This document shows, piece after piece, positions 15,279 to 43,403 of a DNA stretch of 64,000 bases. Each line of letters starts with the position of its first letter. The first letter of the stretch is position 1. The DNA comes from Sedimentisphaerales bacterium. GTDB lineage: Bacteria > Planctomycetota > Phycisphaerae > Sedimentisphaerales > SM23-30. A model generated the notes under the pieces. That model had not been told where the DNA came from and made no database searches. It saw only the letters and a program-made list of their open reading frames with translations. The stretch is taken from assembly GCA_963666285.1 (NCBI GenBank), contig OY762711.1; one strand, 5' to 3'. Position numbers and translations under genes: made by a program.

Positions 15279-15453
15279 GAACCCATCCCAAAATCTTTTT
15301 TTGCATTGATTGGCTGCATTCACCCTGCCCTTCGTTGATCGGCAAAAAACAATCTCGACGTATAATAATACGCCTGCGATAGTTTTTGGCCTCCGCCTCG
15401 GCCATGAATAAATTCGCTCAATCCTGCATTAAAACATATTTTGGACGAGTTCA
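15279..15453. mobile_element. Long imperfect palindromic element (MITE/REP-like)
   Basis: Ends GAACCCATCCCAAAAT / ATTTTGGACGAGTTC. Nested pairs TGCATTGATTG/CAATCCTGCA, GGCAAAAAACAATC/GATAGTTTTTGGCC and CGTA/TACG, with apex near 15362-15367. Confidence 0.55.
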
Positions 15454-15831
15454 AATAACTTACATCAGTCCCAATCGGGCAGCCTCAATTATTAACCCTT
15501 CCTGAAACTCCTATATGCCGGATCTCCTTACCCGGTGACAATTAATACCCAGATTCCGAATTTGTTAAAAAGTTCAAACTGACTCGTGGCCAGTTGAAAG
15601 TTATTTTTAAGTATTTGGTATCAGGCAAGGATAGCCGTAAAGCGGCAGGCCTGTTTAATATAAAAGATTGTCTTAAAATATATTACAACAATATAAAGAG
15701 ACTAATCAATCATACTAAATTAAGCAAATACCTTTCAAGCTGTGAAACTCAAGTTGCCTTAAACATCCACAAATTATCGTATCCGGTCGGGATGTTATTA
15801 TCAAGTAAAAATTGAAATTAGTTGGCAGGTA
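15362..15831 (+). repeat. ~470-bp direct repeat, copy 1 (left of Cas9 locus)
   Basis: Near-identical to 22287-22755 (about three substitutions and a 1-bp indel seen by eye); both copies give the same 73-aa ORF. Confidence 0.95.
15552..15815 (+). pseudogene. Possible LuxR-type HTH gene remnant inside the direct repeat
   Basis: Reads FKLTRGQLKVIFKYLVSGKDSRKAAGLFNIK..KIYYNNIKR, resembling LuxR C-terminal HTH; no proper start. Confidence 0.3.
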
Positions 15832-15878: not shown

Positions 15879-15977
15879 ACAACAAGTTAAAATTGAACAG
15901 GGATAAAGGATTGCCCGCTTCTTTGAAATCTGAGAAATAATTGTGGTTATAGGTAATTAATTAAATCCAACATTAAT

Positions 15978-16105
15978 AAAAAAAGCACCCTCAAAATGAA
16001 GGTGCAAGAGGTTGTTCCGTGGAACATTGCTCGCACATAACAGCGGAGCGCCTGCGTCTTTTTCAACTTATTGTGAAAAGTATACAGACTAGGATTAATT
16101 ACACT
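15978..16105 (-). ncRNA. tracrRNA: tracrRNA
   Basis: 36-nt anti-repeat at 16070-16105 (+ strand ATTGTGAAAAGTATACAGACTAGGATTAATTACACT versus repeat GTTGTGGATTGACAACAGGCTAGGATTGATTACACT). It continues ...CACAATAAG and ends in hairpin GCACCTTCA/GAGGGTGC + T7 (16005-15978). Confidence 0.9.
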
Positions 16106-16140: not shown

Positions 16141-16159
16141 ATAGAAATTGGAGTTTAAT

Positions 16160-19100
16160 ATGGTGAAATATGTTTTAGGACTTGATTTAGGGCCAACATC
16201 TATTGGATGGGCAGCAATTGCTATTGATGAAAATGGCAATTTTTTAGGTTTTCTGAAAATTTCAGATTCTAAAGATGGTTTGCATTGGATTCCAGCTATT
16301 AATTCGAGAATATTTCCGATGCCATATGTAGAAAAAACTTATTGTGCTGGAAATAAAGAAACAACCAGAAATAAAAACAGAAGAGATGCTAGAGGGGCCA
16401 AAAGAAGATATCAAAGACGGTCTCAAAGGTTGAATGAAACTTATTGCTTTTTACATGAAAGAAATATTCTTCCAGAAAGAAATGAATATGAGAAATTACT
16501 TTCTTTGGATCCTTTTGAAATAAGAGCAAAGGCTTTAGAGGAAAGAATAGATTTACATCATGTAGGAAGAGCAATAATGCATATAGCAAAAAGGAGGGGT
16601 TTTAAGTCAAATAGTAAATTAGGTGGATTGATAGACGTTGATACAGACAATAAGAGAAAGAAAAAAGATAAATCCAAGATAACTCTTTTAAATACATACG
16701 AAGGAAAAACAATTGGGCAAATATGTTATGAGAAACATAAGGATGATATCTGTACTGCTGTAAGGAATAAAGGTGAAATGAATATATGGCAAAGGAAAGA
16801 CTATATTGATGAAGTATGTCGTATATGGAAATGTCAACAACAGTATTATCCAACAATTCTTACGGACGATGTATTAGAGGATTTAGTATCAGAAGATGGA
16901 AGTAAATGGTTATTATTCAGTCAGCATAGTTATAAATTGTCAGCAAGAAAGCAAAGGAAGTATATTGGAAAATGTTCACTATGGAAAGAAAAGCTAAGAT
17001 GTGATAAAAGTAAGAGAGTTGCACAAGAATTTGTGCTTCTTCAAACAATTAACTACTTAGAAATATATGATTCTTACGGTTCAAAAATTGAATGCGGCGT
17101 TTCAAAAGAAGATAAGCAAAAAATATTAGAATATATATCTTCCTTTGAGAAAGGCAAAAAGTATTCACAAATTAAAAAACATTTAGGATATCCAGAAGAT
17201 TGGAGATTTAATTTTGAGGATGTAGAAGAAGATAATAGTTTGCCAGGAATTGCAGTAGATGATCTGATAAGAGTTATATTTGGCGAAAGGAAGGGCAATA
17301 AGTATGTGCAGATTGTTGATTATAGTGATAGAGAAGCTGTTTGGGAAATTGTGCTTTTATATATTGATGAAGAGATATCATACAATGAATTACGAAAGCA
17401 AATGGTTAAATTTGATGTTGAGGTTCCAGACGAAGATATATTGAATGCTAAACTAAGTAAAGCAAAAGTACCTGATGGACATGTCAAGTATTGTGAAGAA
17501 ATAGTTAAAATTCTTAATGCCGAAATGCTAAAGGGTATAAACTTGCATGAAGCAAAACAGAGAGTTTGCAAACGTTTAGGGCTAAAAAATAATAGCAGAG
17601 TATTGTCCAAATTACCAATACCTGATAGGGCACATGGTTTTGAAACTACTAATCCAAATGTCAAAGTGGTTTTACATGAAGTTAGAAAGATAGTAAATCA
17701 ATTAATAAAAGAGTTTGGCAAACCAGAGAGGATTATGATTGAGTGCGGAAGGTCGATTAAAGCAAATAAAAAACAAAGAGAGGTAATAAAGAAAAAACAA
17801 AAGGATAATAATACATTGAAAAAAAGTGTTAGGGAGATATTTGATGTAAATGATCAAATACCAGCTTTTATTAAATGTAATAAGCCAGGATGGGCAATTA
17901 AAAGATATATATTATGGCAACAGCAAAAAGGTATGTGTCCGTACTTAGATTCCAGTAAAAAACAAATTCCATTATCAAAACTATTTAGTTCAGAAGTGGA
18001 AATAGACCATATTATTCCTCGTGAAATATCATTTGATAATTCATTAAATAACCAGGTAGTATGTTATACGAATGAAAACAGAAATAAGGGACTTAACACA
18101 CCTATTAGCTGGTTAAAGGAAACAAATCCGGAAAAGTGGGTAAATACACAGAATGCGATAAAGCATTGGAAAGAACTGACTAAGCGGGAAAAAATTACTA
18201 TTGATGGTGAAGAAATTACGTTGGAGCCAAATAGGAATAAATGGGAACGTTTTTTTGTAAATAATAAAGATGTGCACAATAAATACAGCCCTAAAAATCT
18301 CCTGAATGACAATTCATACATTGCAAATGAAGTAAAAAAGTATTTACTGAGATTATATCCTTCTGAAAATCAACAGGGTAGACAAAATGTTGACACAACA
18401 AAAGGTATGATCACCAGTGAGCTAAGAAAAATATGGGGAGTTAATAGTATATTGCGTAAAGATGATATTGATCAAAAGAATAGAGGTGACCATAGGCATC
18501 ATGCAATAGATGCAGCTATTTGTGCTGTTACTACTCATTCTGAAATTCAAAAAATAACGCGAGAGTTGCAACAAGCGTTTCCTGAAACGGATTATGGGAA
18601 AATAAAAATTAGTAAACCTTGGTCTGGTTTTGAAAGAGATTTAAAAGAAGTGATTGATTCTATAAATGTTTCGCATCGGCCAAGACGGCAAGTTCGAGGA
18701 TCATTGCACGGAGATAGCTTTTGGGCAAAAGATTCAAATGGAAAATTTGTGCAAAGAAAAAAAGTGAAAGATGCTAATGTGAGTACTGTTTGTGATGAAA
18801 AGGTTAGAGATCTTATAAAGAAATGGAAGGAATCTAATCAAAGTGAATATCCTATGCTGCCAAATAATAATCATAATGTAAATAATGGAGAACCAATTCC
18901 AGTTAAGAAAGTTAAATGTTATTCTGGGAAAAATGAAAATCAATTTATTGAAATCAGGCCAGGAAAGTATGTTGAAAAGCCTGAAAATCATCATGTCGAG
19001 TTATTTGAACTTGAAGAAAATGGATCAACTCAAATAATTGCAAAAATATGGAATACTTATGAAGTATCAAAAAGAATAGCGAATGCAAACCGCAAGTATA

Positions 19101-19435
19101 ATAAACTTGCTAAGAGTGGGGAAAAGTTAAATATGACTAACTGTATAGTTATCCGTGAGCATCCAGAATATTCAGAAGCAACATTTAAGTTTTCATTTTC
19201 AAAAGGGGATATTATTCAAATGGATAGTAAAAAAGGAGGAAGGGCTTATTATAGAGCCGTTAGTATTGGCGAAAATGATTATTGGTTTTGGGAATTGCAT
19301 ATTGCATCAAATGAAAAACCTAAAGCAGATGATTTAGATGGGCATAGGCTGAGAAGCCCCAATAAATTCTTAGAATTGAATGCTAAAAAGGTTACGGTTG
19401 CCCCATTGGGTCGTGTACGGTGGGCAAATGATTAA
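16160..19435 (+). CDS. cas9: Type II-C Cas9 (~1091 aa)
   Basis: RuvC-I GLDLG, Arg-rich bridge helix, KRRGF, RuvC-II IMIECGR, HNH EIDHIIP...N..K and RuvC-III HRHHAIDA. Adjacent cas1/cas2 with no csn2 or cas4. ATG 16160 with GGAG RBS. Confidence 0.97.
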   Translation: MVKYVLGLDLGPTSIGWAAIAIDENGNFLGFLKISDSKDGLHWIPAINSRIFPMPYVEKTYCAGNKETTRNKNRRDARGAKRRYQRRSQRLNETYCFLHERNILPERNEYEKLLSLDPFEIRAKALEERIDLHHVGRAIMHIAKRRGFKSNSKLGGLIDVDTDNKRKKKDKSKITLLNTYEGKTIGQICYEKHKDDICTAVRNKGEMNIWQRKDYIDEVCRIWKCQQQYYPTILTDDVLEDLVSEDGSKWLLFSQHSYKLSARKQRKYIGKCSLWKEKLRCDKSKRVAQEFVLLQTINYLEIYDSYGSKIECGVSKEDKQKILEYISSFEKGKKYSQIKKHLGYPEDWRFNFEDVEEDNSLPGIAVDDLIRVIFGERKGNKYVQIVDYSDREAVWEIVLLYIDEEISYNELRKQMVKFDVEVPDEDILNAKLSKAKVPDGHVKYCEEIVKILNAEMLKGINLHEAKQRVCKRLGLKNNSRVLSKLPIPDRAHGFETTNPNVKVVLHEVRKIVNQLIKEFGKPERIMIECGRSIKANKKQREVIKKKQKDNNTLKKSVREIFDVNDQIPAFIKCNKPGWAIKRYILWQQQKGMCPYLDSSKKQIPLSKLFSSEVEIDHIIPREISFDNSLNNQVVCYTNENRNKGLNTPISWLKETNPEKWVNTQNAIKHWKELTKREKITIDGEEITLEPNRNKWERFFVNNKDVHNKYSPKNLLNDNSYIANEVKKYLLRLYPSENQQGRQNVDTTKGMITSELRKIWGVNSILRKDDIDQKNRGDHRHHAIDAAICAVTTHSEIQKITRELQQAFPETDYGKIKISKPWSGFERDLKEVIDSINVSHRPRRQVRGSLHGDSFWAKDSNGKFVQRKKVKDANVSTVCDEKVRDLIKKWKESNQSEYPMLPNNNHNVNNGEPIPVKKVKCYSGKNENQFIEIRPGKYVEKPENHHVELFELEENGSTQIIAKIWNTYEVSKRIANANRKYNKLAKSGEKLNMTNCIVIREHPEYSEATFKFSFSKGDIIQMDSKKGGRAYYRAVSIGENDYWFWELHIASNEKPKADDLDGHRLRSPNKFLELNAKKVTVAPLGRVRWAND

Positions 19436-20330
19436 GCGGATAATCGAGGTTTCTCAGGCGAAGACATATTTATCGGTTAAAAATAGCCAATTGTTAATAC
19501 GCCGAGATGATGAGCAGATAGGTCAGATACCATGCGAAGATATAGGTATGCTGATAGTAGATCATCCTGGTGTGATATATACACACTGCGTGTTTACTGA
19601 ACTGGTTAAAGCAGGTGCTGCGGTTGTGCTGTGCGGAGCAGACCATCATCCGGCGGGAGTGTTTATGCCGGTAGAGTCTAACAGCGTGCAGACCGAGCGT
19701 ATGCGTGGGCAGCTGCTGGCGAAAGAGCCTATAAAGAAGCAGATGTGGAAGCAACTGGTGCAGTCAAAGATCCGGCATCAGGCAGAAGTGCTGGGTAAAG
19801 ATTGTCGTGCGTATGAGGGATTGCAGGAGATGGCAAATGCGGTGAAGAGCGGTGACCCGGAGAATAAGGAAGCGCAGGCGAGTAAACTGTACTGGAAATA
19901 TTTTGGTGATGAAATGGAGTTCAAAAGGCATCGGTACGGTAAGAGTCCTAACAATATGCTGAATTATGGATATGCAATTGTTCGTGCGGCTGTTGCCAGG
20001 GCAATCGTAGCGGCTGGTTTGAACCCATCAATTGGTGTGCATCACTGCAACAAGTATAATGCATTTTGCCTGGCGGATGATTTGCTGGAGGCCTTCAGGG
20101 GATTTGTGGATAGAAGGGTTCTTGAAATATGGTCGGAATTGTCTGGGGGTGAAGGCGAAGTTGAATTGGATCAGGAGATAAAGGCAAAGCTGCTTGAAAT
20201 ATTATATGATGAAGTAGAGCTGGGGCAGTATTCCGGACCGATGATGGTTGGTATGCACAGAATGGCGGCATCAGTAGTGAAGTGTTTTGCCGGGGAAAGT
20301 AAAAATCTGGATTTGCCGAAAATCTGTTAA
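19428..20330 (+). CDS. cas1: Type II Cas1
   Basis: IPCEDIG, SGDPENKEAQA, NNMLNYGYAIVRA and GVHH..YNAFCLADDLLEAFR; ATG overlaps cas9 end. Confidence 0.96.
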   Translation: MIKRIIEVSQAKTYLSVKNSQLLIRRDDEQIGQIPCEDIGMLIVDHPGVIYTHCVFTELVKAGAAVVLCGADHHPAGVFMPVESNSVQTERMRGQLLAKEPIKKQMWKQLVQSKIRHQAEVLGKDCRAYEGLQEMANAVKSGDPENKEAQASKLYWKYFGDEMEFKRHRYGKSPNNMLNYGYAIVRAAVARAIVAAGLNPSIGVHHCNKYNAFCLADDLLEAFRGFVDRRVLEIWSELSGGEGEVELDQEIKAKLLEILYDEVELGQYSGPMMVGMHRMAASVVKCFAGESKNLDLPKIC

Positions 20331-20398
20331 AGGCAGGTTTGTTAAAAGACGAAAAATAAGAAGATGAGTGAAATTTTTATTTTTTCTGAGTGACAATA

Positions 20399-20728
20399 AT
20401 GGATATCAGCGGGTATAGAGTAGTGTGGATACTGGCAATGTTTGACCTGCCGACCGATACGAAGCAGGCAATAAAAGATTATACGCAATTTCGTAAAAGT
20501 CTTTTAAAAGACGGGTTTTCTATGATACAATATTCTGTATATATCAGACATTGTGCCAGTGAGGAAAACGCAGATGTTCATTTTGAACGAGTTAAAAAAT
20601 TTTTGCCTCCGGATGGCGAAGTGCGGCTGCTTTGTATTACCGATAAGCAGTATGGTCGCATGGAAACCTATTGGGGGCGGCGTAGAAAACCGACGCCTCC
20701 GGCACCAAAACAGCTCGAACTTTTCTGA
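20399..20728 (+). CDS. cas2: Type II Cas2
   Basis: WILAMFDLPT, FRKSLLKDGFSMIQYSVY, ITDKQY and QLELF. Confidence 0.96.
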   Translation: MDISGYRVVWILAMFDLPTDTKQAIKDYTQFRKSLLKDGFSMIQYSVYIRHCASEENADVHFERVKKFLPPDGEVRLLCITDKQYGRMETYWGRRRKPTPPAPKQLELF

Positions 20729-20784: not shown

Positions 20785-22204
20785 AGTGTAATCAATCCTA
20801 GCCTGTTGTCAATCCACAACTTGACAGATCTTTGCTGCTGGTGATGGGGTAGTGTAATCAATCCTAGCCTGTTGTCAATCCACAACAGGTGTCTGCGTTT
20901 AGCTGGTCGATCTTGTAGTGTAATCAATCCTAGCCTGTTGTCAATCCACAACAGCTCAAGCCTTGTAAGTTTGCTAGTTCTTAGTGTAATCAATCCTAGC
21001 CTGTTGTCAATCCACAACTAATATGAGTGCTTATGCAATTCTGTCAAAGTGTAATCAATCCTAGCCTGTTGTCAATCCACAACAATTTATTTTCACTCCA
21101 CTTATCGTCCCAGAGTGTAATCAATCCTAGCCTGTTGTCAATCCACAACATAAGCAGATAATGGATGAGCGTTGGGAGTAGTGTAATCAATCCTAGCCTG
21201 TTGTCAATCCACAACATCTTATTGTTTCTCCTGGTCCGGCTTTTCAGTGTAATCAATCCTAGCCTGTTGTCAATCCACAACACAACTTTATAATTGTTGT
21301 AAGTGCAGCCCAGTGTAATCAATCCTAGCCTGTTGTCAATCCACAACCTCTTGTCTGAACTATCTCATCAATGGAAAAGTGTAATCAATCCTAGCCTGTT
21401 GTCAATCCACAACACATTCCTTCAGGGGAAGCGATTCAAATAAAGTGTAATCAATCCTAGCCTGTTGTCAATCCACAACCCCGCCCTGGTTAATGTATTT
21501 GCTCGGGCAAGTGTAATCAATCCTAGCCTGTTGTCAATCCACAACCATTTCCCTTATCTACTAAAACAGTACTGAAGTGTAATCAATCCTAGCCTGTTGT
21601 CAATCCACAACTGGATGTCTTCAACTCATGTCGGATTCTGGAGTGTAATCAATCCTAGCCTGTTGTCAATCCACAACGGTGTTTCAGAGTTCTTTAATCG
21701 TTAATCGAGTGTAATCAATCCTAGCCTGTTGTCAATCCACAACTTTATCATGGCAGTATGTTCGTTTTGATTAAGTGTAATCAATCCTAGCCTGTTGTCA
21801 ATCCACAACAAGTTTCGGGTCGGAGTTATTCACTCTTTTAGTGTAATCAATCCTAGCCTGTTGTCAATCCACAACCAAGGGCAAAGTAAGATGTGGCGAG
21901 CGTTCAGTGTAATCAATCCTAGCCTGTTGTCAATCCACAACGTCGGTGTCGGTAAAACTTATGCCCGTTGTAGTGTAATCAATCCTAGCCTGTTGTCAAT
22001 CCACAACATCGCCTTGCCGGGTTATGTCTACCTATCAAGTGTAATCAATCCTAGCCTGTTGTCAATCCACAACCACGCTCACTGCCGCGAACAGCTGTTT
22101 GGAGTGTAATCAATCCTAGCCTGTTGTCAATCCACAACTATCCTTGACTTGAACGGTAATACAGTTGGAGTGTAATCAATCCTAGCCTGTTGTCAATCCA
22201 CTGA
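20785..22204 (-). CRISPR. CRISPR array, 22 repeats of 36 bp, 21 spacers of 29-30 bp
   Basis: Plus-strand repeat AGTGTAATCAATCCTAGCCTGTTGTCAATCCACAAC at a 65-66 bp period; last repeat (22169-22204) ends TGA instead of AAC. Minus-strand transcription is inferred from tracrRNA polarity and the GTTGT start. Confidence 0.99.
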
Positions 22205-22286
22205 CTGCAGCGATTGGTTTCGAGTATAGAGCGGCCAGCAATAAGCAGAGAGCTGGAGTAAAATCAGTTTGTGTTTGTAATGAAAA

Positions 22287-22755
22287 ATAATAATACGCCT
22301 GCGATAGTTTTTGGCCTCCGCCTCGGCCATGAATAAATTCGCTCAATCCTGCATTAAAACATATTTTGGACGAGTTCAAATAACTTACATCAGTCCCAAT
22401 CGGGCAGCCTCAATTATTAACCCTTCCTGAAACTCCTATATGCCGGATCTCCTTACCCGGTGACAATTAATACCCAGATTCCGAATTTGTAAAAAGCTCA
22501 AACTGACTCGTGGCCAGTTGAAAGTTATTTTTAAGTATTTGGTATCGGGCAAGGATAGCCGCAAAGCGGCAGGCCTGTTTAATATAAAAGATTGTCTTAA
22601 AATATATTACAACAATATAAAGAGACTAATCAATCATACTAAATTAAGCAAATACCTTTCAAGCTGTGAAACTCAAGTTGCCTTAAACATCCACAAATTA
22701 TCGTATCCGGTCGGGATGTTATTATCAAGTAAAAATTGAAATTAGTTGGCAGGTA
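22287..22755 (+). repeat. ~470-bp direct repeat, copy 2 (right of array)
   Basis: Matches 15362-15831; starts at the apex of the palindrome and ends next to the IS200 remnant. Confidence 0.95.
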
Positions 22756-22760
22756 GAAAA

Positions 22761-23236
22761 TGGTTCTCCAGAAGACTCTAAAAAGAGGTGAAGGAGAACC
22801 AAAATGAAAGACAGGCAAACCCAAAACCATGTTAAATGGGAATGAAAGTATCATGTGTTAATAGTACCAAAATATCGTAAGAAGATAGGCGAGATAATTC
22901 GAGAATTATGTCGCCAAAAGGATATCGAATTATTAGAAGGCAATGCAGGTGTGGATCATATTCATATGTTGCATAGTATTCCACCTGGGTACAGTATTGC
23001 CATGACAATGGGATCTTTGAAGGGCAAAAGTGCTATTCGCATAAACAGGAAGCTTGTCTGTTTGGTAGAAGCTTTTGATCCCTAGGATATTGTGTAAGAA
23101 CGGTTGGTCTTGATGAGGATATAATACGAAAATATATCCAGGATCAGGAACAGCAAGAACGTGATGAAGATAAATAGAGGTATCCAAATTCTAGGGTTCT
23201 TCCTCGGACCTCCTGCTATGCAGAAGGCGTGGTTGA
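22761..23236 (+). mobile_element. Decayed IS200/IS605-family element
   Basis: Left hairpin TGGTTCTCC...GGAGAACCA (22761-22801) occluding the RBS, tnpA remnant, right hairpin CCTCCTGC-TAT-GCAGAAGG (23209-23227). Ends approximate. Confidence 0.7.
22804..23177 (+). pseudogene. tnpA: IS200-type Y1 transposase pseudogene
   Basis: MKDRQTQNHVKWE*KYHVLIVPKYRKK...DHIHML (HUH)...LKGKSAIRI, then frameshift to LFGRSF*SLGYCVRTVGLDEDIIRKYIQDQE. Two stops, a frameshift and internal deletions. Confidence 0.9.
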
Positions 23237-23868
23237 TTTGTCTTTGAAATAGGCTCTATTATCTCATCAGGAAATTCATGAATCGCTTTATTAAGCAGAT
23301 TATCTAATTTTTCTTCAAGGGCTCTTGGAAGTAAAAAAAATGTTTCACGTTTTTGCTCAAACGTAACAAAAGAGTACCTGTTAAGATATTTATCCATATT
23401 ATCGTTATGTTTGTATTCAACAAATAGCAAAACATTGGTATTTGTTGAATAAATATACACATCTTCAACTACGGGTTTTATGATGATTATTCCCATTTTG
23501 GAATCATATTCTCCATGTATAGTCCGTGCAAGTACTGGAATATTAGGATCGAATTCCTCATCCTTATTTTTATCGAATTCAATTATTTCATTTCCCATAA
23601 AAATGGTACTGCCTTTAGGTGGACAAATATGTTCGAAGTTACTTAAATTAGTATTGTTAGTAGATGTATAAAATACATCCACTATACCTTCATGAAAAAG
23701 TTTCCCTTCAAAACCAAATTGATTTAAGATACTGTCAACTTCTTCTTTGGGTAATCCATTTTTCAGCAGCAAATTATTATCATAAAATAAATGAGATTCA
23801 GTAGTATTTTCAGAAATACAACCTGAAAAGAAAATTAGAAACAATAAATATATTATCAAATTCTTCAT
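23191..23868 (-). CDS. AT-rich hypothetical lipoprotein
   Basis: MKNLIIYLLFLIFFSG-C lipobox; 225-aa open frame in very AT-rich DNA; no SD before the ATG. Confidence 0.75.
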   Translation of the reverse strand: MKNLIIYLLFLIFFSGCISENTTESHLFYDNNLLLKNGLPKEEVDSILNQFGFEGKLFHEGIVDVFYTSTNNTNLSNFEHICPPKGSTIFMGNEIIEFDKNKDEEFDPNIPVLARTIHGEYDSKMGIIIIKPVVEDVYIYSTNTNVLLFVEYKHNDNMDKYLNRYSFVTFEQKRETFFLLPRALEEKLDNLLNKAIHEFPDEIIEPISKTNQPRLLHSRRSEEEP

Positions 23869-23879
23869 AAGTATATATA

Positions 23880-23915
23880 AGTGTAATCAATCCCAGCCTG
23901 TTGTCAATCCACGAA
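23880..23915 (-). CRISPR. Orphan degenerate CRISPR repeat
   Basis: AGTGTAATCAATCCCAGCCTGTTGTCAATCCACGAA, 33/36 identical to the array repeat, 1.7 kb beyond the array. Confidence 0.95.
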
Positions 23916-24332
23916 CAGCAGTGATCGGCTTTGAGTATTGAGATGCCAGGAATAAATAAGCAAGGAGCAGTGGTGAAATCATATTATAACTATCACAGGG
24001 GTAAATGAGGCATAATTATATAGATTGTGATTAGCTATCGGACCATTATGGTATGAAGTTTATTGCCAGAAAGCATATATAATTGATAATAGCATATAAA
24101 ATATTGATCGTGTGAAATGGAAATATGGATTGTGGAAAAATATTTTTTTGTAAGTTGTTGTTAGTAATAGTCTTACTGGCAAGTTGTGTTGTTTGTCGTA
24201 ATGTTGATGATAAATCGCAAATCTGGCAAAAAAATGAGATTATTAATGAAAAAGTGTATATGTTTTTGGTACGATAATAGTACTTGAATCAAAGCAGTCA
24301 TGAATATACAAAGTAAAGGTGTGAAACTAGAG

Positions 24333-27300
24333 ATGAGTAAAATAGTTGTAAGTATCTTTTTTTTATTAATGTTATGTCAGATATCTCTCTATGGCGGCAT
24401 AATTGTATCAGAGACAGATTCCGGCACGCAGATCCAGGAATATGGTTTATCAGATTCGATTGTAATAACAATTGACAATGCTCCTACAGCGACAGTCTGG
24501 GTTCAGATATCAGCCAATACTGCTGATATAGAGATAGACGGCGGTTTTGGCGGTGATGATGCTTATATATCCTTTACAACAAGTGACTGGTCAGTGCCAA
24601 GGGAAGTTGTGCTGGTGGCAGCTGATGACGGAATCCAGGAGCCGCAGGAGCAGGTGACATTGTCATTTAGTGTTACCAGTGGTGATACTTCGTATAATGG
24701 TGTTGCGCTTGCAGATATAATTGTTACAGTTTTGGATAGAGAAGTTGATATCTGCCCGGAAGGAGATATCGACGGCGATTGTGCCGTGTCAATAGCTGAC
24801 CTCGAATTGCTGGCAGGACAATGGCTTGGTTCGCCAGATTGCAGTGGAGCAGGATGTCCTGACCTGGTTGACTTTGGTGTAGTAGATCTTCTGGATTTTG
24901 AGCTTTTGTCAGCGAAATGGAAAAAGTCAGTTGGTCCGGTGGTTATCAATGAATTTATGGCGGATAATAACAGCGATAACCCGGACATCTCTCCGGAAGC
25001 GTGGGAGGTTTTTGATGAGACCGGTGACCCGGTTGACTGGATCGAGCTGTGGAATATTACATCTGAGCCGGTTAATCTAACCGGTTGGCATCTGACTGAT
25101 GATAAAGACGAGCTTTCGAAATGGGCATTTCCTGATGACACTATAATCTTGGCCGGAGATTACCTGCTGGTGTATGCATCTGGAAATGAACATGTAACCG
25201 GCAGTTATATTCATACAAACTTCAGTCTGGCAGGTGGAGGTGAATACCTGGGCCTGGTAAACAGTGAAGGGATAGTCACCAGTGAATATATAGATTATGA
25301 GTATGATTCAGATAAGTACGGTTATCCACCGCAGGAAAGTAATGTGTCATATGGTTATACAGACTATCTGCAGAGTCATCGCTACTTTTACCCGGCTACT
25401 CCGGGCGAAGAGAATAATAACAGCTCGCTGGGAACATCACCGGACACAAAATTTACTGTGGATCGAGGATTCTATGATACACCATTTGATCTGAATATAT
25501 ATACTGAGAATCCGGAAGCGATAGTAAGGTATACCCTGGACGGTTCGACACCGGATTGGGATAATGGCGAGATATTTGAGCCGGGCAGTACGATAACAAT
25601 AGATAAGACAACGGTGTTAAGAGCAAGATCTTTCCTGGCGGGTTATCTGCCGAGTAATGTCGATACCCAGACATATATTTTTGCCGCGGATGTAGTAACT
25701 CAACAGTCGGACGGCAGCAGCCCGGGATCAGGGTGGCCGGCACCAGGTTATTCTGTGAACGACCAAAGAATGGTTTATGGAATGGATCCTGATATCGTTA
25801 ATAGCTCGGAATATTCTGATTTAATGGATAATGCACTACATGCGGTGTCGACATTGTCGATGGTGATAGATTCTGAATATTTATTTGACGCATCATCCGG
25901 AATATATGTAAATGCGGCAGCCGCCCGCAGTGATAATGATTTCTGGACAGTTGAAAAGGAAAAAGCATGTTCGCTGGAATTAATTAACCCGGATGGAACG
26001 AAGGGCTTTAATATCAATTGCGGAGTACGAATCCGAGGTGGAGCCAGTCGGACAGGTGGAAACCCTAAACATGCGTTCAGGTTTTTCTTCAGGGATAAGT
26101 ATGGTAAGGGTAAGCTGGAATATCCGCTGTTCGGCGATGAGGGAGTGGATGAATACGACAAGGTTGATCTGCGAACAAGCCAGAATTTTTCGTGGTCGTT
26201 CAAGGGCAGTTATGAAAATCAACATAATACGTTTGTGCGTGAGGTGTTTTCCCGAGATATGCAGGGCCGCCTGGGTCATCCTTATACCAAGAGCAGGTAT
26301 TATCATTTGTATATTAATGGTGTATACTGGGGATTGTATCAGACGCAGGAAAGAGCGGAGTCCCGTTTTGCAGCATCGTACATGGGCGGCAAAAAGACTG
26401 ATTATGATGTTGTAAAAGCAGACAGTAACTACGGGCGGGAGATGACAGCGATCGAAGGTAATCGGGACGCATTTGAAAGATTATGGGCGGCAATAGCAGA
26501 TGGAGTGTACACGACGGAAGAATATTATCGTTTGCAGGGTATGAACCCGGATGGTACAATTAACCCAGCCTACGAGCGGCTGCTGGATGTGGAAAACCTG
26601 ATAGACTATCAGCTAATAAATTATTATACTTCTGATACTGATGGTGCAGCGTCCAGGTTTGGAAATTTACCGAATAATATATTCTGTTTGTACAACCGCA
26701 GCAACCCGGACGGCTGGAAGTGGATGGAGCATGATTCGGAACATTCGATGGGTGTATCAGAGCTAGGCTGGCCGAACTATGAAAATCTGGTGACGCCATA
26801 TACGACAGCCGGTGCGCAAATGCGATATTTTAACCCGCACTGGATGCACGAGCAGCTGATCCAGCAAAGTACAGAATATCGTATGGCATTTGCAGACAGG
26901 GTACAGGAATTGTTTTATAATGATGGTTTGTTTATGCCGGACAATGTCTGGGATATTTTAGTGGCGCGTGCGTTGCAGATTAATAATGCCATTATTGCCG
27001 AGTCAGCACGCTGGGGTGATACGAATACAAATCCACCGCGAACGAAAGAGACATGGCAAGAAGCGATCGATTATGTTCAGGATTTTATTTATGGAGCAAG
27101 CGGACATCCATGGGAGGCCAAACCACGTCAGCAGCGTGTCGTAGAGCAGTTTATGGGTGAGAACTGGCTGCCGATACTATCGGCTCCTGAATTTAATCAG
27201 TATGGCGGTTATGTGCCGGATGGGTTTAGCCTTGAGATTAGTAATCCTAACAGTACCGGTGAGATATATTATACCACGGACGGATCAGATCCAAGGATGC

Positions 27301-30125: not shown

Positions 30126-30204
30126 TACAATGGTTGATTATGTATTTCTGCAGGATTCACGAGTGTGATTAACTGCGGGCGGTACTTGATAAGGAGTGTT
30201 TGTG

Positions 30205-30600
30205 ATGGCCAAAAGTGAGTTATCTCTTCTTTCCAAACGTGAACAGCAGATTATGGATTTTATCTATGCACAGGGCAGGGCTACTGCCGGGGAAGTTCAT
30301 AAGGGTATTCCGGAGCCACCGAGTTATTCGGCGGTGCGTGCGCTTTTGCGGGTGCTGGTAGATAAGGGTCAGCTGCGTCATGAGAAGGATGGTCCGCGGT
30401 ATGTGTATTATCCGACAAGCTCTAAGAAGACGGTGGGTGCTCCTGCGCTGAAGCGGGTGGTGAATACATTTTTTGAGGGTTCGTTTGGAAAGGCGGTCGC
30501 GGCCCTTATGGATGTGAACGGTGAATCGCCGACAAGTGAAGAGCTTGATCAGTTGCAGAGCCTGATTGACAAGGCCAGGCAGAACAGGAGTGAAAAATGA
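30205..30600 (+). CDS. BlaI/MecI/CopY family repressor
   Basis: LSKREQQIM, SYSAVRALLRVLVDKG, RYVY, FFEGS; translationally coupled (ATGA) to the M56 gene. Confidence 0.92.
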   Translation: MAKSELSLLSKREQQIMDFIYAQGRATAGEVHKGIPEPPSYSAVRALLRVLVDKGQLRHEKDGPRYVYYPTSSKKTVGAPALKRVVNTFFEGSFGKAVAALMDVNGESPTSEELDQLQSLIDKARQNRSEK

Positions 30601-33600
30601 GTGTATTATATAAATTGACCGATTTGTCGCCGGAAGTATTTGAATTTCTTGTCTCGATGGTTGTTAAAGGGATATTGATATTTGCTATTGCCGGTAGTTT
30701 GAATATTCTGCTGAGGAAAGCGTCTGCCGCGTTGAGGCATATGGTGTGGCTGCTGGCTTTTGGTGCGTTGAGTTTATTGCCGCTGCTGATATTGACAGTG
30801 CCGAGTGTGGGGGTGCCGGTATTGCCGGCTGCAGAAGAAATTAAAAATTCAGAATTAAAAATTCAAAGAGAAGAAATTTTCTCTGCGAGCCAGCTAGAAG
30901 TTTTTGATTCAGGATTTTCATTTGAAGGAGAAGCTTCTAGCGGAGAGATTCCGCAAGCAAATATTGGGCCAACGAATGCTGAAGTTACTGTAATTGAACC
31001 AGAGTTAAGTTTATCAGTGGGGCAGTGGTTGCTGCTGGCATGGGCGGCAGGATTTGTTATATGTCTGTGTCCGATATGCTACAGGTTGATTTTGCTGGCG
31101 ATATTCCAGGGCAGGTGCAGGAAACTGGAAGATAAGAATACTGTTGGCCTGGTGGAAGAGGTCTGCGGTAAGCTGAATATAAGGAAACGGGTTAAGGTTA
31201 TTGGTAACGATGATGCGAGCGGTCGGTTTGCGCCTATGGTTTGGGGTGTGCGTCCGGCGGTATTGTTTTTACCGAAGGCGAATGAAGGCTGGGACTGTCA
31301 GCAGTTGAGAAGTGTGCTGCTGCATGAGCTGGCACATATCAAGCGGCATGACTGGCTGTCGCAGCTGTTTGGCAGCGTGGTTTGTGCGGGGTACTGGTTT
31401 AACCCGCTGGTGTGGTATGGTTTGAGACGGCTGCGGGTCGAACGTGAGCAGGCATGTGATGACCTGGTGATTAATAGCGGGATAGACCATGCTGACTATG
31501 CCGAGCATCTGGTGGGTATTGCCCGCAGGCTGGTGAATCGTCAGCCGGTAAATTCAGCGGCGTTGGCGATGGCACGTACCAGCCAGATTGAGTCCCGGAT
31601 AAAGGCTATTTTAGATATACGCAAAAATCGCAAAGCGGTAACGCGTGTTATGCTGGCTGGTTTTACGATAGTAGTAGCTGCGGTGTCGGTTACGCTGGCA
31701 TCTCTAACACCTGTTGAGAAAGAGACTGAAAAAGCAAGTGAAGAGTTAATGAATCCGCCAAAGGCGGAAGCTGATTTGAAACAGGGGTCAGGTGTCAGGG
31801 ATCAGGTGTCAGGGAATGTGCTCGCTGACGCTCGATTAATTAATATAGAAGAAGCAACCACAGAAGACGCGAAAGAAGATAGTAAGGATGTGGAAAAGGG
31901 GACGGAGATCTTAAATTCTGTTCAGGAAAGCGAAGCCGGTCAGTTGGAAGTTTATGTTACCTACGCTGCAGATGACAGTTCGATAGAAGGTGCCCGGATG
32001 CGGCTTTATCTTGATAAAAGCTATGATGATCCAATTGAAATTTTAACCGATAAGGATGGTATTGCCAGAGTGTCTCTTACACCGGGCGTTTATGAACTTG
32101 GTACGCCAATGAAAGACAGATATGTCAGTGTTTTTAAGTCGAATCCTAAAATCGAGATTAAGGAAAACAGTAGAGCTCAATATGAATTTCAGATGACTGA
32201 TGCCCCAAGGTTAATAGGGTACGTTCATGATAGTACCGGCAAACCTGTTGCCAATGCCGTAGTTCGGCTTATCCCGGAAGGTCCAAAAGAAGGTTATTTA
32301 ACAAATGAAAATGGCAAGTTTGAATTTTCCTGGAGGCTCAGGCCAATTACGACCTATCTCGTTGCCCGGAATCCGCTTGACAATACCGCGGGTGTTATCC
32401 AAATACATGACGGAATGGGTGAATTAAAAACCGACTATGTTAATGATCCGGAGAATATTATACTTAGCGAGGCCCAAACTGTAACAGGCCGGGTGTTAAA
32501 TGAAACTGGTGATGTGGTTGCCGGTGCCAGGGTAGAGATTTTGAAAAACACCCCGCGCGGGCTGGCTATGATTGCCTCTGGCATAACTGACAGAAGCGGA
32601 AACTATTCCATCAATGCGATACCTCCGGATGTTGAAGGCTGTTGGGTACGAGCCGAGGCAGACCGGTACGGCGGGCCGGTTTGTATTCAAGTCAAGCCCC
32701 CTTCAGCGGGAAATATTTGTCAGGCTGAATCTTTGACATTGAAGATTCCAGACAGTTCAATCTCCGGTGTCGTTGCAGATAGTGAGGGTAATACGATTGA
32801 AGGAGCAACAGTCAAAACTGCCTGCGGGTACGACGGTCAGCCGGAACGGATTGTCAAAACAGATAGTAATGGCCGGTTTGTTATTGACGGGGTATGCAAA
32901 GGGGAATTGAGCCTGTTTGCGAAGAAAGGAGAACTTGGCACTTTCCGGGTCGATACATTTGGCGGCAAAAAAGATCTAAAAATAGTATTAACTCCGCAGG
33001 TGGCGGTATTTCCTGGTGTTAAACCGCTAATTTCAGGCATCGCTGTAACGGCTAAACCTGTTAAAACTACCTGGAATGTTGGTGAAGTGCCTCAGGTTGA
33101 AGTTGTTGTTGATATTGCTGATGAGCAGGTTTACCAAGCTAGTAAACTGAGTGAGATACATTTCAGCCATTATTACAATGCTTTTATGGTCATAGTTGAC
33201 GGCCGGGAATATGTCACCGACCATTCCGCTACGGCATATCCTGTCTCTTTGATGGCTCCATGGAAGATTAAATTGCCGCTGGATATCTGGGTAATCCCTC
33301 GCAAGACCGGCGATACCCTGGCAGACGTTCAGCAGCTCAAACTCACCCCCGGCAAACACAAGGTCAAGATCGCCTTTATAGGCAGAGATAATTATTCAGT
33401 TGAAAAAAACTTCTCCGGCCCCGATGCCTTTGTGATGCCCGTATCTGAGGAATTTGAGATAGAAATACAGCCAGATATTATTGACCGTGCCGGTTTTAAT
33501 AATGTTAAGGTAGGGCTAGTCAGTATATGTAATAAGCGTACCGGTTTGTCTTATGGCTTGGATGGGAATGTAATCAATAAGCCGGGCTATTTTATTGAAT

Positions 33601-34385
33601 GGCCGACAGGGAATTCCAGACCTGACTTTAACCGGCTTCCTTCTTCGGAGGTTCCGGCTAATAATTATGAGTATGAAAAAGAGAATAATTTTGATTATTA
33701 TGAAGTTGTCGTAAAAATAGATGGGGTAAAACCTGTTGACAAAACATGGATAAAATGGGAGGCAGATAAAAGTGGAACTCTTTTTTCAGATCGCGGCCTT
33801 ACCGGTAAAGGTATTGAAGATAATTATTATGCTGCAAGATTACGTGTGCCCAAAGGTGCAAAGACGACTAATATAAATCTTGGTATGAATGTGAGAGGGT
33901 GGAAAATACTTGAGAGTTTTGATGAGCCGGGCGAATACAAAACAGATAATTATTATGTTAAGCTTGAGATAAGTGATCTGGATCCAAGGTCAAGAGGTTT
34001 TGAAATCAGGTGTACGCATAATATTGCAGACCATCAGGTGAAACTTGATCTTTTAGATAAGAAAGGGATTGCCCACGGGCAAATGCAGAATATTATATGG
34101 AAGGTCGATGATGGTTTATTTATGATCAGGTCAACGTTTGATCGGAAGCTTAAAGATATAATCAAGGGCTACCGGGTGTGTATTGGTGATAATGATTGGT
34201 TTACTCTAAAAGATGTCAAACTTCCGGTAGAAGAAGATAACGAGACAGTTGCATCTAGTACAGCAGTCAGTTCAGAGTTAGATAATGATGAAGGAAGCAA
34301 AAGAGTTTCAGAAATAGAAAAAGATGCTAAATGGTATGAGGTTAAGGTTGTTGATACAGAAGGTCGGCCGGCAGCAGGCAGATAG
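30597..34385 (+). CDS. BlaR1/M56 peptidase sensor with carboxypeptidase-regulatory-like repeats; C-terminus appears frameshifted
   Basis: SAALRHMVW, VLLHELAHIKRHD, WFNPLVW, REQACDD and RIKAIL; repeated G.V.D..G.P..GA.V...TD..G.F units. Confidence 0.88.
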   Translation: MSVLYKLTDLSPEVFEFLVSMVVKGILIFAIAGSLNILLRKASAALRHMVWLLAFGALSLLPLLILTVPSVGVPVLPAAEEIKNSELKIQREEIFSASQLEVFDSGFSFEGEASSGEIPQANIGPTNAEVTVIEPELSLSVGQWLLLAWAAGFVICLCPICYRLILLAIFQGRCRKLEDKNTVGLVEEVCGKLNIRKRVKVIGNDDASGRFAPMVWGVRPAVLFLPKANEGWDCQQLRSVLLHELAHIKRHDWLSQLFGSVVCAGYWFNPLVWYGLRRLRVEREQACDDLVINSGIDHADYAEHLVGIARRLVNRQPVNSAALAMARTSQIESRIKAILDIRKNRKAVTRVMLAGFTIVVAAVSVTLASLTPVEKETEKASEELMNPPKAEADLKQGSGVRDQVSGNVLADARLINIEEATTEDAKEDSKDVEKGTEILNSVQESEAGQLEVYVTYAADDSSIEGARMRLYLDKSYDDPIEILTDKDGIARVSLTPGVYELGTPMKDRYVSVFKSNPKIEIKENSRAQYEFQMTDAPRLIGYVHDSTGKPVANAVVRLIPEGPKEGYLTNENGKFEFSWRLRPITTYLVARNPLDNTAGVIQIHDGMGELKTDYVNDPENIILSEAQTVTGRVLNETGDVVAGARVEILKNTPRGLAMIASGITDRSGNYSINAIPPDVEGCWVRAEADRYGGPVCIQVKPPSAGNICQAESLTLKIPDSSISGVVADSEGNTIEGATVKTACGYDGQPERIVKTDSNGRFVIDGVCKGELSLFAKKGELGTFRVDTFGGKKDLKIVLTPQVAVFPGVKPLISGIAVTAKPVKTTWNVGEVPQVEVVVDIADEQVYQASKLSEIHFSHYYNAFMVIVDGREYVTDHSATAYPVSLMAPWKIKLPLDIWVIPRKTGDTLADVQQLKLTPGKHKVKIAFIGRDNYSVEKNFSGPDAFVMPVSEEFEIEIQPDIIDRAGFNNVKVGLVSICNKRTGLSYGLDGNVINKPGYFIEWPTGNSRPDFNRLPSSEVPANNYEYEKENNFDYYEVVVKIDGVKPVDKTWIKWEADKSGTLFSDRGLTGKGIEDNYYAARLRVPKGAKTTNINLGMNVRGWKILESFDEPGEYKTDNYYVKLEISDLDPRSRGFEIRCTHNIADHQVKLDLLDKKGIAHGQMQNIIWKVDDGLFMIRSTFDRKLKDIIKGYRVCIGDNDWFTLKDVKLPVEEDNETVASSTAVSSELDNDEGSKRVSEIEKDAKWYEVKVVDTEGRPAAGR

Positions 34386-40560: not shown

Positions 40561-40764
40561 TGATTAGTCTCTTTATGTTGATGTAACATATTTTAAGATA
40601 ATCTGTTATGTATTAGTATAAACAGATTGCCGCTCTGCGGCTTTCAAGCTTTTAGGTCTAAGATGCGCCTTAGGCGAGTTCTTGTTCCCCTATCTCTTAT
40701 GCCTTTCAAATTTAGTGTCGGTAGTTTTGGAAATTTATTTTTTTCAAAAAAAACATTTTTATGC

Positions 40765-40796: not shown

Positions 40797-41060
40797 ACAG
40801 GAAATACCGTTCTATCAGGTATTTTGTTGATATTTTTAGTCTGTGTTCGGTTCAGATACGAACTATGTAGTAATCTTTGTTTTTTAATATACTTAATTGC
40901 ATGAGGTTTCTATTCTGTTTTCTATTAGTCGTCATTGATTTGTATTAAATGTTAAGAACTTTTGTCTATGTTATTGATATTTTGTCCTATATAAGAATTT
41001 TCAAAGATGTTTAGTTGTATTTCTTGAACTATTTATTCATTTATTTTGGAGGTTATTAGA

Positions 41061-43403
41061 ATGAAAAAGGCAGTTTTATTCTTATTGGTATCAGCGATGG
41101 CTGCGATATGCCAGGCTGAGATGGTCGATGATTTTGATGGTTATGATATTAGTGTATCAACAAATGTGATTGATCTTGATACGCCCTGGGAAGCGAGAGA
41201 AAGTAGTGATCTGGTAGATATTATTGATGATGGTACCGGTAACCAGGTACTTTCATACGGTGGAGCCGGATTTCATAATCCTACCATAACGGAGATTCCG
41301 GACACATCAGTCGCCACCACTTTGTTCTATCGTTTTTATGTAAACAATGAAGACATCGATAATAGTTTTGGTTTAAGTGACTTGACTGATAACGGCTGGT
41401 TTTCTGATTTTGAAATTCAGATAGCAGTTATAAGAACCGGTACTACTGATGACGGAGTTGTTAATTTTCATGTACGAAACAGCGGCAGTGCAACTCAGGT
41501 TGCCACGATCAATGCAGGTCAGTGGTATAATGTCTGGGCAGTTATAGATCAGACAACAGATACCTATGATGTTTATCTTGGTCAAGGTATGCTGGCAGCT
41601 ACATCAGCAAACCTGGTAGCAGATAGTTTTAGCTTCCGAAATGGGACAGCAGATCCATTGGTAGCGGTCAAGGGCTTAGGTTATAATTCAGCTGATAGTT
41701 GTTTGTTTATTGATGATATATATATAATAGATGGTGCATATCTTGGATATGCTCCAACTAAGCCATATGATCCTGCAGTATCCATGGAATCAGTTGGTGG
41801 TCAGGTTGAGGCAACCTTGTCATGGAAGCCAACAGTTGACGATAGCGGCACATATGCAGTAGAACCTGATATTGCAGAAGAATACCTTTTCCTGGGAGAG
41901 TCAGTAGATGCCCAGTATTATATTGGTACACTGCCAGATCCCGGTACAGACGAGATAACAGTATCAGAAGTTGTTTCCGGTCTTGATTTTGACACAAAAT
42001 ATTACTGGACAGTAGTAGATGCAACTGTTGGAAATGAAGAAACATTTACAGTAGAAAGTACACTTGCTGATGCCGATCCTAACGTAAATATTTTTGGTCC
42101 AACCTGGTCATTTGATTCTTTGATTTCAAGTGCGGTTATTGATATCCAGCCGTCAGATACCCGTGTATTTGAAGGTGAGACAGCAGTGTTTACAGTTGAA
42201 TATAATACTGCAATTAATCCTGTTGTATCAGCCGATTGGTATAGAAATGGTGTAAAATTGTCAGAAGGCGATGGTATCACTATGGACTTTAGCTCAGCAG
42301 CAGGTGACGGGCAGGCAACATTAGCAATTGCAGGAGCATCGCTTGATGATGAAGCCAATTACTATTGTGTATTGAGTACGGATTCGTCGGTAATAACAGA
42401 CGATGTTCAAACTGCTACAAGGCTGCTGGTAATTAAGAAGCTACTGGCACAGTACAGTTTTGATAATTCTGAAGACCTGTTGGCAGATACAGGTGAATTT
42501 GCAGCCGAAGTCGGCACAGCCAGAGACGCAGCTCAGCTGAAGACAGTTTCACTTGACGATCCAAATGAAATGCTGGCAGTTGCAGCTACGCCGGTAGAAG
42601 TTGACGGTATTATCGGTGGTGCTTTGTATCTTGATGGTGACAAATATGTAGATATGGACTCTGAAAGTTATCCAAGGGCCGGTTCGCTGGATACCGTAGG
42701 CGATATTCGCGGTCTAGGATATGAGAAGCAGGGCTTTGGTCGTGGTATGGACGCAGGATCAATCCTGCTGTGGATCAAGCCAGAGTCAGATGGTTGTGTA
42801 ATAGCAAATGCAAGCAATACCGATGGAACTCATTTTGCCATAACAACAAACGGCAGTAATAGTGCCAGAATAATTGTACGCGGAGATAACTGGGGTAGTG
42901 ATTCCAGTTGGCAGAATCTAGGTGAAGCTAGTGGTGCTTATGACTATATGACAGATTTTGATATGCTGGCAGATGGAGAATGGCATATGTTCGCCGCCAC
43001 ATGGAAAGACAGCACAGCCCGAATTTATATTAACGGTGAACAGGTTGCAGAAAGCACCCAGGGTTATGCTGAAGATTATACAGCCTGGGACTATAGCAAT
43101 TTGATTGGCGTATCTCGTCAGGGCCAGCCAAATCGCCACCTGTTAAATGCCGGTGATTTCTTCACGGGTGCTGTTGACGAGTTAAGGATCTATAACTATG
43201 CTGTCTCGGCAGAGGTAATAGCTGATGAATACGAAATGCTGAACGAAGCAGGTGTAGTTCCTTGTATCGATCATGAATTTGTCGGCAATAATGCAAACCT
43301 TGATAATACGGTTAATTCTTATTGTGTAGTTGACCTGTTTGACTTAGCAGTACTGGCAAAGTATTGGCTGGTAGATGGTTTTGCAGTTGAAGATGTAGAA
43401 TAA
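41061..43403 (+). CDS. Secreted Ig + LamG-domain protein with dockerin-like tail (paralogue A)
   Basis: GGAGG RBS, signal peptide, WYRNG..DEANYYC, WHMFAATW..IYING..GAVDELRIY and CVVDLFDLAVLAKYWL. Confidence 0.82.
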   Translation: MKKAVLFLLVSAMAAICQAEMVDDFDGYDISVSTNVIDLDTPWEARESSDLVDIIDDGTGNQVLSYGGAGFHNPTITEIPDTSVATTLFYRFYVNNEDIDNSFGLSDLTDNGWFSDFEIQIAVIRTGTTDDGVVNFHVRNSGSATQVATINAGQWYNVWAVIDQTTDTYDVYLGQGMLAATSANLVADSFSFRNGTADPLVAVKGLGYNSADSCLFIDDIYIIDGAYLGYAPTKPYDPAVSMESVGGQVEATLSWKPTVDDSGTYAVEPDIAEEYLFLGESVDAQYYIGTLPDPGTDEITVSEVVSGLDFDTKYYWTVVDATVGNEETFTVESTLADADPNVNIFGPTWSFDSLISSAVIDIQPSDTRVFEGETAVFTVEYNTAINPVVSADWYRNGVKLSEGDGITMDFSSAAGDGQATLAIAGASLDDEANYYCVLSTDSSVITDDVQTATRLLVIKKLLAQYSFDNSEDLLADTGEFAAEVGTARDAAQLKTVSLDDPNEMLAVAATPVEVDGIIGGALYLDGDKYVDMDSESYPRAGSLDTVGDIRGLGYEKQGFGRGMDAGSILLWIKPESDGCVIANASNTDGTHFAITTNGSNSARIIVRGDNWGSDSSWQNLGEASGAYDYMTDFDMLADGEWHMFAATWKDSTARIYINGEQVAESTQGYAEDYTAWDYSNLIGVSRQGQPNRHLLNAGDFFTGAVDELRIYNYAVSAEVIADEYEMLNEAGVVPCIDHEFVGNNANLDNTVNSYCVVDLFDLAVLAKYWLVDGFAVEDVE

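Follow-up and report, generated by a model that had tools for sequence, protein, structure and literature searches.

A 64,000-nt stretch of the genome of a Sedimentisphaerales bacterium (contig OY762711.1 of the 6.35-Mb assembly GCA_963666285.1), referred to here as the window, contains a solitary type II-C CRISPR repeat on the minus strand (23880–23916), and its 3′ end lies 11 nt before the start codon of a lipoprotein gene (23191–23868, minus strand). We propose that the promoter built into this repeat is the most likely driver of the gene, which resembles an orphaned immunity gene of an Rhs toxin locus; we hold this with moderate confidence, promoter activity, start site and translation all being predicted from sequence. 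We favor the repeat promoter because it is the best promoter near the gene, because the gene has no Shine-Dalgarno (SD) site and because its reading frame was apparently kept open. The arrangement is most likely an accidental promoter capture and not a device controlled by Cas9.

The solitary repeat is 37 nt long, is of the type found at the trailer end of the array and has a degenerate 5′ end. It carries a −35 box TTGACA (23907–23902), a spacing of 16 nt and a −10 box TACACT (23885–23880), with a score of 10/12, and is followed by an AT-rich gap of 11 nt without an SD (23869–23879, minus strand) and the ATG at 23868. An initial annotation of this DNA had pointed out the boxes, the gap and the SD-less start of an open reading frame (ORF) for a lipoprotein of 225 amino acids (aa), all of which are present in the sequence, and had rightly called the gene AT-rich (GC content 30.5%, vs 41% for the contig). 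Within 430 nt upstream of the gene, the repeat has the only −10 box whose −35 box beats 4/6. The weaker candidates (23978–24091, minus strand) are TATAAT at 23988 (−35 box 2/6), TATGAT at 23983 (−35 box 4/6) and TG-n-TATTAT at 24091. The box sequences and their spacing are identical to those of the nearby array, where they occur in every repeat (three within the scanned range), and the gene of the predicted trans-activating CRISPR RNA (tracrRNA) has a promoter of the same type. Aligned to the array repeat without gaps, the solitary repeat matches at 33/36 positions; with gaps, it differs by a 1-nt insertion near the 5′ end and a single internal A>G change. It is the sole sense-strand copy outside the array in the assembly, where the background does not exceed 25/36 apart from the array, the solitary copy itself and the tracrRNA anti-repeat (27/36). 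Short-read contigs from two of three public runs span 22726–25500 with zero differing letters; these runs possibly derive from the source sample and would then not be independent.

The start of the lipoprotein gene forms a duplex of only −0.1 kcal/mol with the anti-SD, compared to −3.7, −3.8 and −3.8 kcal/mol at the starts of its three paralogues, all of which have an SD. Genome-wide, 69/91 lipoprotein genes and 650/923 long ORFs reach −3 kcal/mol or better, and among the same 91 lipoprotein genes one other has a comparable promoter within 14 nt of its start, at a gap of 0. In Neisseria, type II-C transcripts start at the sixth nucleotide after the repeat (PMC12477760). Applied here, that rule predicts a start at A23874 and a leader of 6 nt with no structure.

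We suggest the following course of events. A rearrangement would have brought the 3′ end of the repeat to within 11 nt of the ATG of a lipoprotein gene that resembles Rhs immunity genes; the gene has neither an SD of its own nor a toxin gene upstream of it here. The sigma70-type promoter at the end of every II-C repeat would lead RNA polymerase to start about 6 nt past the repeat, at A23874, to give an mRNA with an AU-rich leader of 6 nt, whose weak SD-less translation would maintain a low constitutive level of the orphan immunity lipoprotein. Such an mRNA would exclude the repeat, and tracrRNA and Cas9 would therefore have no handle on it. A leaderless mRNA would begin with its AUG, whereas the leader predicted here is 6 nt. 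A strong promoter paired with a poor start site is what a chance junction, sufficient to be retained, might look like, and it argues for an accident over a tuned design.

The native part of the lipoprotein ORF comprises 210 codons (23239–23868, minus strand), and the last 15 codons and the stop (23191–23238, minus strand) are read from the right end of an adjoining insertion sequence (IS). Five of five aligned homologues share Met1, which supports the start codon, and the same five share Gly16-Cys17 of a type II signal peptide with a lipobox. The homologues end about where the native 210 residues end, so the gene is essentially whole. The family is small: two distant homologues were found among 1.84 billion representative sequences, a profile search yielded four copies in this genome (the window copy and three paralogues), and the resulting family of five sequences has P0003 as its sole outside member. 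Structure prediction from the five sequences gave a mean predicted local distance difference test score (pLDDT) of 47.8; a Foldseek search of the predicted structure returned nothing at E ≤ 0.001 in the PDB and no usable match in the Atlas. The family alignment diverged too much to be used for finding such loci in viral contigs. For one of the four genomic copies, P0002, the start lies 28 nt beyond an ORF whose Rhs core exceeds the TIGR03696 cut-off. The outside homologue P0003 and P0006, a protein that shares 89% identity with a portion of this Rhs ORF, both come from a 612,249-bp contig and may form a second such pair. In Rhs loci, a toxin gene followed by its immunity gene is the usual order. 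Since P0002 directly follows an Rhs-core ORF in this order, the family probably consists of immunity lipoproteins, of which the window copy, with no toxin gene beside it, would be an orphan. The gene thus looks like one for immunity to an interbacterial toxin rather than an anti-phage gene. Elsewhere in the genome, two ORFs of 313 and 286 aa (G000:C1:4449180–4450175 and 5748998–5749870) have a hydrophobic, signal-like N-terminus that leads straight into an Rhs core motif, with a variable region at the C-terminal end; they lack long Rhs repeats and are candidates for minimal secreted Rhs-type toxins.

The IS that supplies the end of the ORF is an IS200-family tnpA remnant on the plus strand (22753–23238), about 70% identical to three intact copies that are identical to one another. 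It has lost its left end, contains two in-frame stops and one frameshift, and retains a precise right end. These three disabling lesions fall in approximately 135 codons of the remnant, compared to none in the 210 native lipoprotein codons, in which about 4.7 would be expected (Poisson P ~0.01, our own arithmetic). An intact native frame beside a decayed IS suggests selection on the lipoprotein gene from the time of the IS insertion onward, provided that the IS did not arrive in a damaged state.

The repeat is related to a type II-C locus at lower positions in the window. Library matches identify cas9 (16148–19435), an NMENI-type cas1 (19380–20330) and cas2 (20390–20728), all on the plus strand, and directly after cas2 lie the leader and an array in which 21 spacers separate 22 repeats (20785–22205). 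A tracrRNA is predicted on the minus strand (15975–16105), with an anti-repeat (16070–16105), hairpins, a U-rich terminator and its own TTGACA-N17-TATTTT promoter; an Rfam scan of the window gave no match, for this or any other RNA, and the tracrRNA is a prediction. The anti-repeat pairs with the minus-strand array repeat at −42.1 kcal/mol, so the CRISPR RNAs (crRNAs) are read on the minus strand and the repeat at 22169–22205 is the old, trailer end of the array. The order cas9-cas1-cas2 with no other cas gene ahead of the array, the tracrRNA and 36-nt repeats with a −10 box at their 3′ end place the locus in type II-C. Spacers 1, 2 and 6 from the cas2 end (20821–21179) resemble a resident prophage-like region (G000:C1:5283816–5311541), spacer 1 with 26/27 letters in a BLAST match and spacers 2 and 6 weakly, which fits the cas2 end being the newest.

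The initial annotation had described the repeat as a lone one. The match to the terminal array repeat instead continues into the flank: 23880–23981 and the array trailer end at 22169–22266 (minus strand; the degenerate terminal repeat at 22169–22205 and its flank), 1.7 kb apart, are 78.4% identical over 102 nt (E 5e-17). The homologous flank of the solitary repeat is about 65 nt long (23917–23981, minus strand), with 15 differences in 61 aligned columns. Both the solitary and the terminal repeat have a degenerate 5′ end that is one base longer, and the 5′ end of the trailer repeat is also degenerate in three related loci (L030/L032, L031 and L033). At the single internal difference, the solitary repeat has G, as do 15 of 16 other variants of the repeat family, while the present array has A; the solitary copy therefore preserves an older state of the trailer unit and the difference is not decay. 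Terminal-unit duplication is one reported source of stand-alone repeats (Shmakov et al., 10.1101/2023.03.03.530964). We conclude that the solitary repeat is most likely a stranded older copy of the array trailer end that remained after the locus was duplicated or replaced, the order of events being our reconstruction.

Several other origins for the flank and the junction were considered and set aside. The flank contains no guide target and no significant fold (structure z ~ +1), so it was rejected as a structured RNA, and the best match to a second repeat is 14/36 (P = 0.36), so it was rejected as an old spacer with a decayed repeat. It was also rejected as a protein-gene remnant: 7/11 differences in the gap-free block, repeat included, fall in one codon phase, which was left as chance, and the genome holds no protein match. 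Weak matches to the flank in L013, L017 and L018 are short and adjoin no repeat, and partial matches in G068 and G043, located within ORFs (L091) or of short length (L092), were attributed to chance. Recombination between a spacer and its protospacer, as the origin of the junction, predicts a matching second junction at the array that is not seen.

According to the initial annotation, the gene sits in the slot of a spacer. Its downstream side does not bear this out: the IS200 remnant, a 470-bp segment and the array trailer follow the gene, and no repeat closes the supposed slot. In addition, the duplication takes in the flank of about 65 nt, and about 1 kb of other DNA precedes the next repeat. 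The 470-bp segment (22287–22755, plus strand) is 99% identical to a second copy at 15362–15831 on the plus strand, and it ends where the IS homology starts; this junction looks like a recent rearrangement laid over an older duplication. The two 470-bp copies form a direct repeat that brackets the entire tracrRNA-cas9-cas1-cas2-array module, which could therefore be lost through one recombination. In run X3, one contig joins 15638 to 22563 and skips the cas module, and the cas genes are also present in X3; 193 identical letters fit either side of this join, and a collapsed repeat is a possible cause. Within the segment, 22490–22645 (also ~15565–15720 and, elsewhere in the window, ~40561–40645) belongs to a dispersed element with dozens of genomic copies that are 68–85% identical.

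Several observations weigh against the repeat as the driver of a functional immunity gene. Other −10 boxes lie 109–217 nt upstream of the gene. In Caulobacter, every extra leader base lowers leaderless initiation (10.1101/2020.05.06.081141), and our arithmetic from that fit puts a 6-nt leader at about 9% of leaderless efficiency. The argument from the open frame dates from the insertion of the IS and not from the junction of repeat and gene, and a damaged IS may have moved in trans. No member of the lipoprotein family was found in 400 other genomes of the order (nor in an earlier search of 40), which leaves no orthologous locus on which conservation could be judged, and the family has no match in Pfam, NCBIfam, PHROG or PADLOC at the thresholds used. 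Two of the three paralogues do not adjoin an Rhs gene, and P0003 and P0006 each lie on a contig of 612,249 bp, the equal contig size being the sole basis for their adjacency. Finally, Shmakov et al. (10.1101/2023.03.03.530964) judge most type II solitary repeats to be spurious and unlikely to be functional.

The leading alternative is an inert relic: the repeat would be a spurious duplicate with a coincidental promoter geometry, and the gene, having lost its SD at the junction, would be silent, untranslated or driven from the AT-rich region upstream. The initial annotation had noted that the three differences between the solitary and the array repeat all avoid the −35 and −10 boxes. The boxes are indeed intact, and the pattern carries little as evidence, since the probability that three random differences all fall outside the 12 positions of the boxes is 0.28 (0.67 when only the one internal difference is counted) and the same boxes are found in every array repeat. 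That pattern is what a relic would show, as are the absence of a repeat beside all three paralogues, the lack of this arrangement in 23 related loci, the cost of a short leader, and at least two of six solitary repeats elsewhere (L034 and L051) that face no credible gene. On the other side, the frame is intact next to a decayed IS, the promoter scores 10/12 with a purine at the expected start, and the repeat core is better kept than its flank (1/32 vs 15/61 differences, Fisher P = 0.006; P = 0.08 when half of the divergence is assigned to the solitary copy). The better-kept core need not mean selection on the promoter, because the 16 nt between the boxes are also kept and the repeat may have served in an array until late. 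We consider an inert relic somewhat unlikely.

If the repeat promoter does drive the gene, the question arises whether such captures are general. Narrow repeat patterns had no match in either metagenomes or genomes; a wider pattern yielded 35 loci (15 + 17 + 3), and widening it further brought no additional locus in viral contigs. Thirteen of the 35 loci had a single match, and seven of these 13 lie at the leader beside cas2, representing empty or cut arrays. In L033, L043/L048, L050, L052 and L059, a single repeat without any spacer adjoins the leader and cas2, and empty arrays are frequent in this repeat family. The remaining six single matches (L034, L042, L045, L047, L051 and L056) have no adjacent II-C cas genes. 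Three of them (L042, L045 and L047) point into credible co-oriented genes 23–145 nt away, which have SD-like sites of their own at plausible starts (−3.3 to −10.7 kcal/mol); L034 and L051 point into no credible gene, and L056 into short, doubtful ORFs only. Of the related loci, 23 (~17 distinct) extend for 1.5 kb or more beyond the trailer; none has an extra trailer-side repeat and the best finding is one 11-nt match, while the window, included as a control, was found. The initial annotation had proposed to look in related genomes for single repeats abutting start codons, an arrangement that occurs in none of the 23 related loci, and had held that homologues never neighboring repeats would imply a chance deletion junction; none of the three testable homologues has a repeat nearby. 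Lone repeats of this family are common leftovers, and the junction of repeat and gene is seen once, at this locus.

The individual solitary repeats differ in their surroundings. The full-length repeat of L042 (G008:C9:13566–13598) lies between divergent genes and points into a histidine-kinase-like ORF, in a genome (85% complete) with no cas9 match. In L045 (2488–3137), a phage-like contig, a perfect II-C repeat stands 29 nt before a two-gene unit encoding a 51-aa protein and a 142-aa lipoprotein, and the 29-nt gap has short words in common both with the first gene and with what precedes the repeat, a pattern that recombination between a spacer and its target might leave. L047 has a solitary repeat (174–209) before a Holliday-junction resolvase gene (PHROG 1770), and in L056 the repeat (25–60), near a contig end, comes after an incomplete duplicate of its 5′ half; both could be RNA anti-CRISPRs against type II-C or promoters carried by phages. 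In L034 (G071:C1:13595–13627), a single II-C repeat stands just before an array of another repeat type with divergent cas1/cas2, and the resemblance of the flank to related II-C loci suggests that one CRISPR system was apparently replaced by another.

These loci bear on a broader reading, in which trailer-end II-C repeats are portable promoters whose stranded copies express cargo without signals of its own, recurrently, across II-C loci and phages with solitary repeats. We regard it as unlikely; if it is true, CRISPR relics would be a source of promoters for interbacterial-defense and phage accessory genes. Its form as recurrent cargo capture, in which recombination at the old first spacer, or close to it, places genes just 3′ of the trailer repeat and these genes are then expressed and retained, is more doubtful still. 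As a corollary, the window locus would be one case of a promoter-end cargo slot shared by phages with a solitary repeat. The ATG lies no more than one spacer length from the repeat, and three of the six solitary repeats without adjacent II-C cas genes face co-oriented genes (for a histidine-kinase-like protein, for a small protein and a lipoprotein, and for a resolvase), as recurrent capture would have it. However, three of six is about the expectation for random orientation, all three sets of genes have their own SD-like sites, no closing repeat is present in the window, the trailer sides of the 23 related loci lack an extra repeat, and the L045 lipoprotein is unrelated to that of the window beyond the signal peptide (probability 7.7%).

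The initial annotation had also raised a possible coupling to tracrRNA and Cas9. In such an element, a longer RNA from upstream, comprising flank and repeat, would pair with tracrRNA and be cut by RNase III to yield a scaRNA-like guide (scaRNAs being small RNAs associated with CRISPR-Cas), a processed lipoprotein mRNA, or both. The solitary repeat is computed to pair with the predicted anti-repeat nearly as well as the array repeat (−38.7 vs −42.1 kcal/mol, the A>G change keeping a G-U pair), the entire repeat and not the boxes alone is conserved, a TATAAT lies at 23988, and scaRNAs beside type II arrays are known (10.1101/2023.03.03.530964; 10.64898/2026.06.01.729453; PMC13431127). However, the lower stem with tracrRNA is reduced from 8 to 5 pairs, and pairing would need transcription to begin further upstream; the −10 boxes found there as candidates for a promoter of the guide, TATAAT at 23988 (−35 box 2/6) and TATGAT at 23983 (4/6), have no good −35. 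The would-be guide has no seed above 7 nt near cas9, the leader or the 5′ region of the gene (the PAM, or protospacer-adjacent motif, is not established, and short or gapped targets are still possible), and its best seed genome-wide, 12 nt, is at chance level. The two flank copies differ inside this would-be seed, and the flank occurs beside no other repeat; together with the absence of extra trailer-side repeats in the related loci, this gives no sign of the conservation expected of a scaRNA. With 14/36 as the best match one spacer away, there is also no second pseudo-repeat of the kind that defines mini-arrays such as those of crRNA-like RNAs (crlRNAs) or CreA. On these grounds, we consider a Cas9- or tracrRNA-coupled element highly improbable.

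The preferred reading, a captured repeat promoter, can be placed among known systems. A single copy outside the array whose best partner at spacer distance is at chance level agrees with the definition of solitary repeat units (SRUs) (10.1101/2023.03.03.530964), as do its position near the locus, its origin from duplication of a terminal unit and its lack of conservation in related loci. It differs in that its embedded promoter faces an SD-less protein gene 11 nt away; the accessible text treats SRUs as spurious, recombinogenic or RNA-producing and not as gene promoters. The feature is a member of the solitary-repeat class that would work like a captured promoter, and it does not qualify as a scaRNA, a mini-array or a gene integrated as a spacer.

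The repeat-embedded crRNA promoters of Neisseria meningitidis (PMC12477760) likewise have a −10 box that closes the repeat, an array opposite to the cas genes and a start at the sixth nucleotide beyond, which is predicted here. In the window, the product would be an mRNA and not a crRNA, the repeat family has a perfect TTGACA −35 box in addition, no repeat follows and there is no leader. Francisella novicida scaRNA, the Cas9-regulating scaRNAs and vscaRNAs (10.64898/2026.06.01.729453) and the Neisseria scaRNA (PMC13431127) share a degenerate repeat near a type II array and possible tracrRNA pairing, and in Francisella a lipoprotein gene is also involved (10.64898/2026.06.01.729453). Their guide, 5′ of the repeat, targets a promoter in trans, whereas the search for a target was negative here and the lipoprotein gene lies next to the repeat, downstream, and is not a target. 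In the crlRNA-supervised defense genes of CRISIS (10.1101/2024.12.27.630466), a repeat-derived element also adjoins a cargo gene close to a CRISPR locus, but there two pseudo-repeats surround a guide that represses the cargo promoter in type I systems; the window has one repeat, no guide target and a cargo without a PADLOC match.

Orphan immunity genes of Rhs and other polymorphic-toxin systems offer a further parallel: a small AT-rich gene, a paralogue after an Rhs-core ORF, no toxin gene on site and an adjoining IS remnant. The window gene differs from these in its family of five sequences without a family match and in an expression signal that a CRISPR repeat seems to have lent it.

Promoters within repeats are already known, and so are solitary repeats, of which those of type II are mostly dismissed as spurious (10.1101/2023.03.03.530964). 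Our literature search found no description of a CRISPR repeat as the promoter of a gene, most subscription papers being outside its reach. If the repeat does drive a protein gene that has been kept, it would be a clean case of a CRISPR repeat reused as a DNA promoter and not as RNA, and lone II-C repeats from lost loci or phages could rewire neighboring genes. As it stands, the locus is one strain-specific junction, a lead and not a system.

Two other features of the window are of interest. At 30196–34385, a gene for a BlaI-like repressor (Penicillinase_R) is followed by one for a 1262-aa M56 peptidase with carboxypeptidase-regulatory-like repeats. At 41046–46590, two tandem paralogous LamG/Ig genes lie 3.2 kb apart and are 70–77% identical in blocks.

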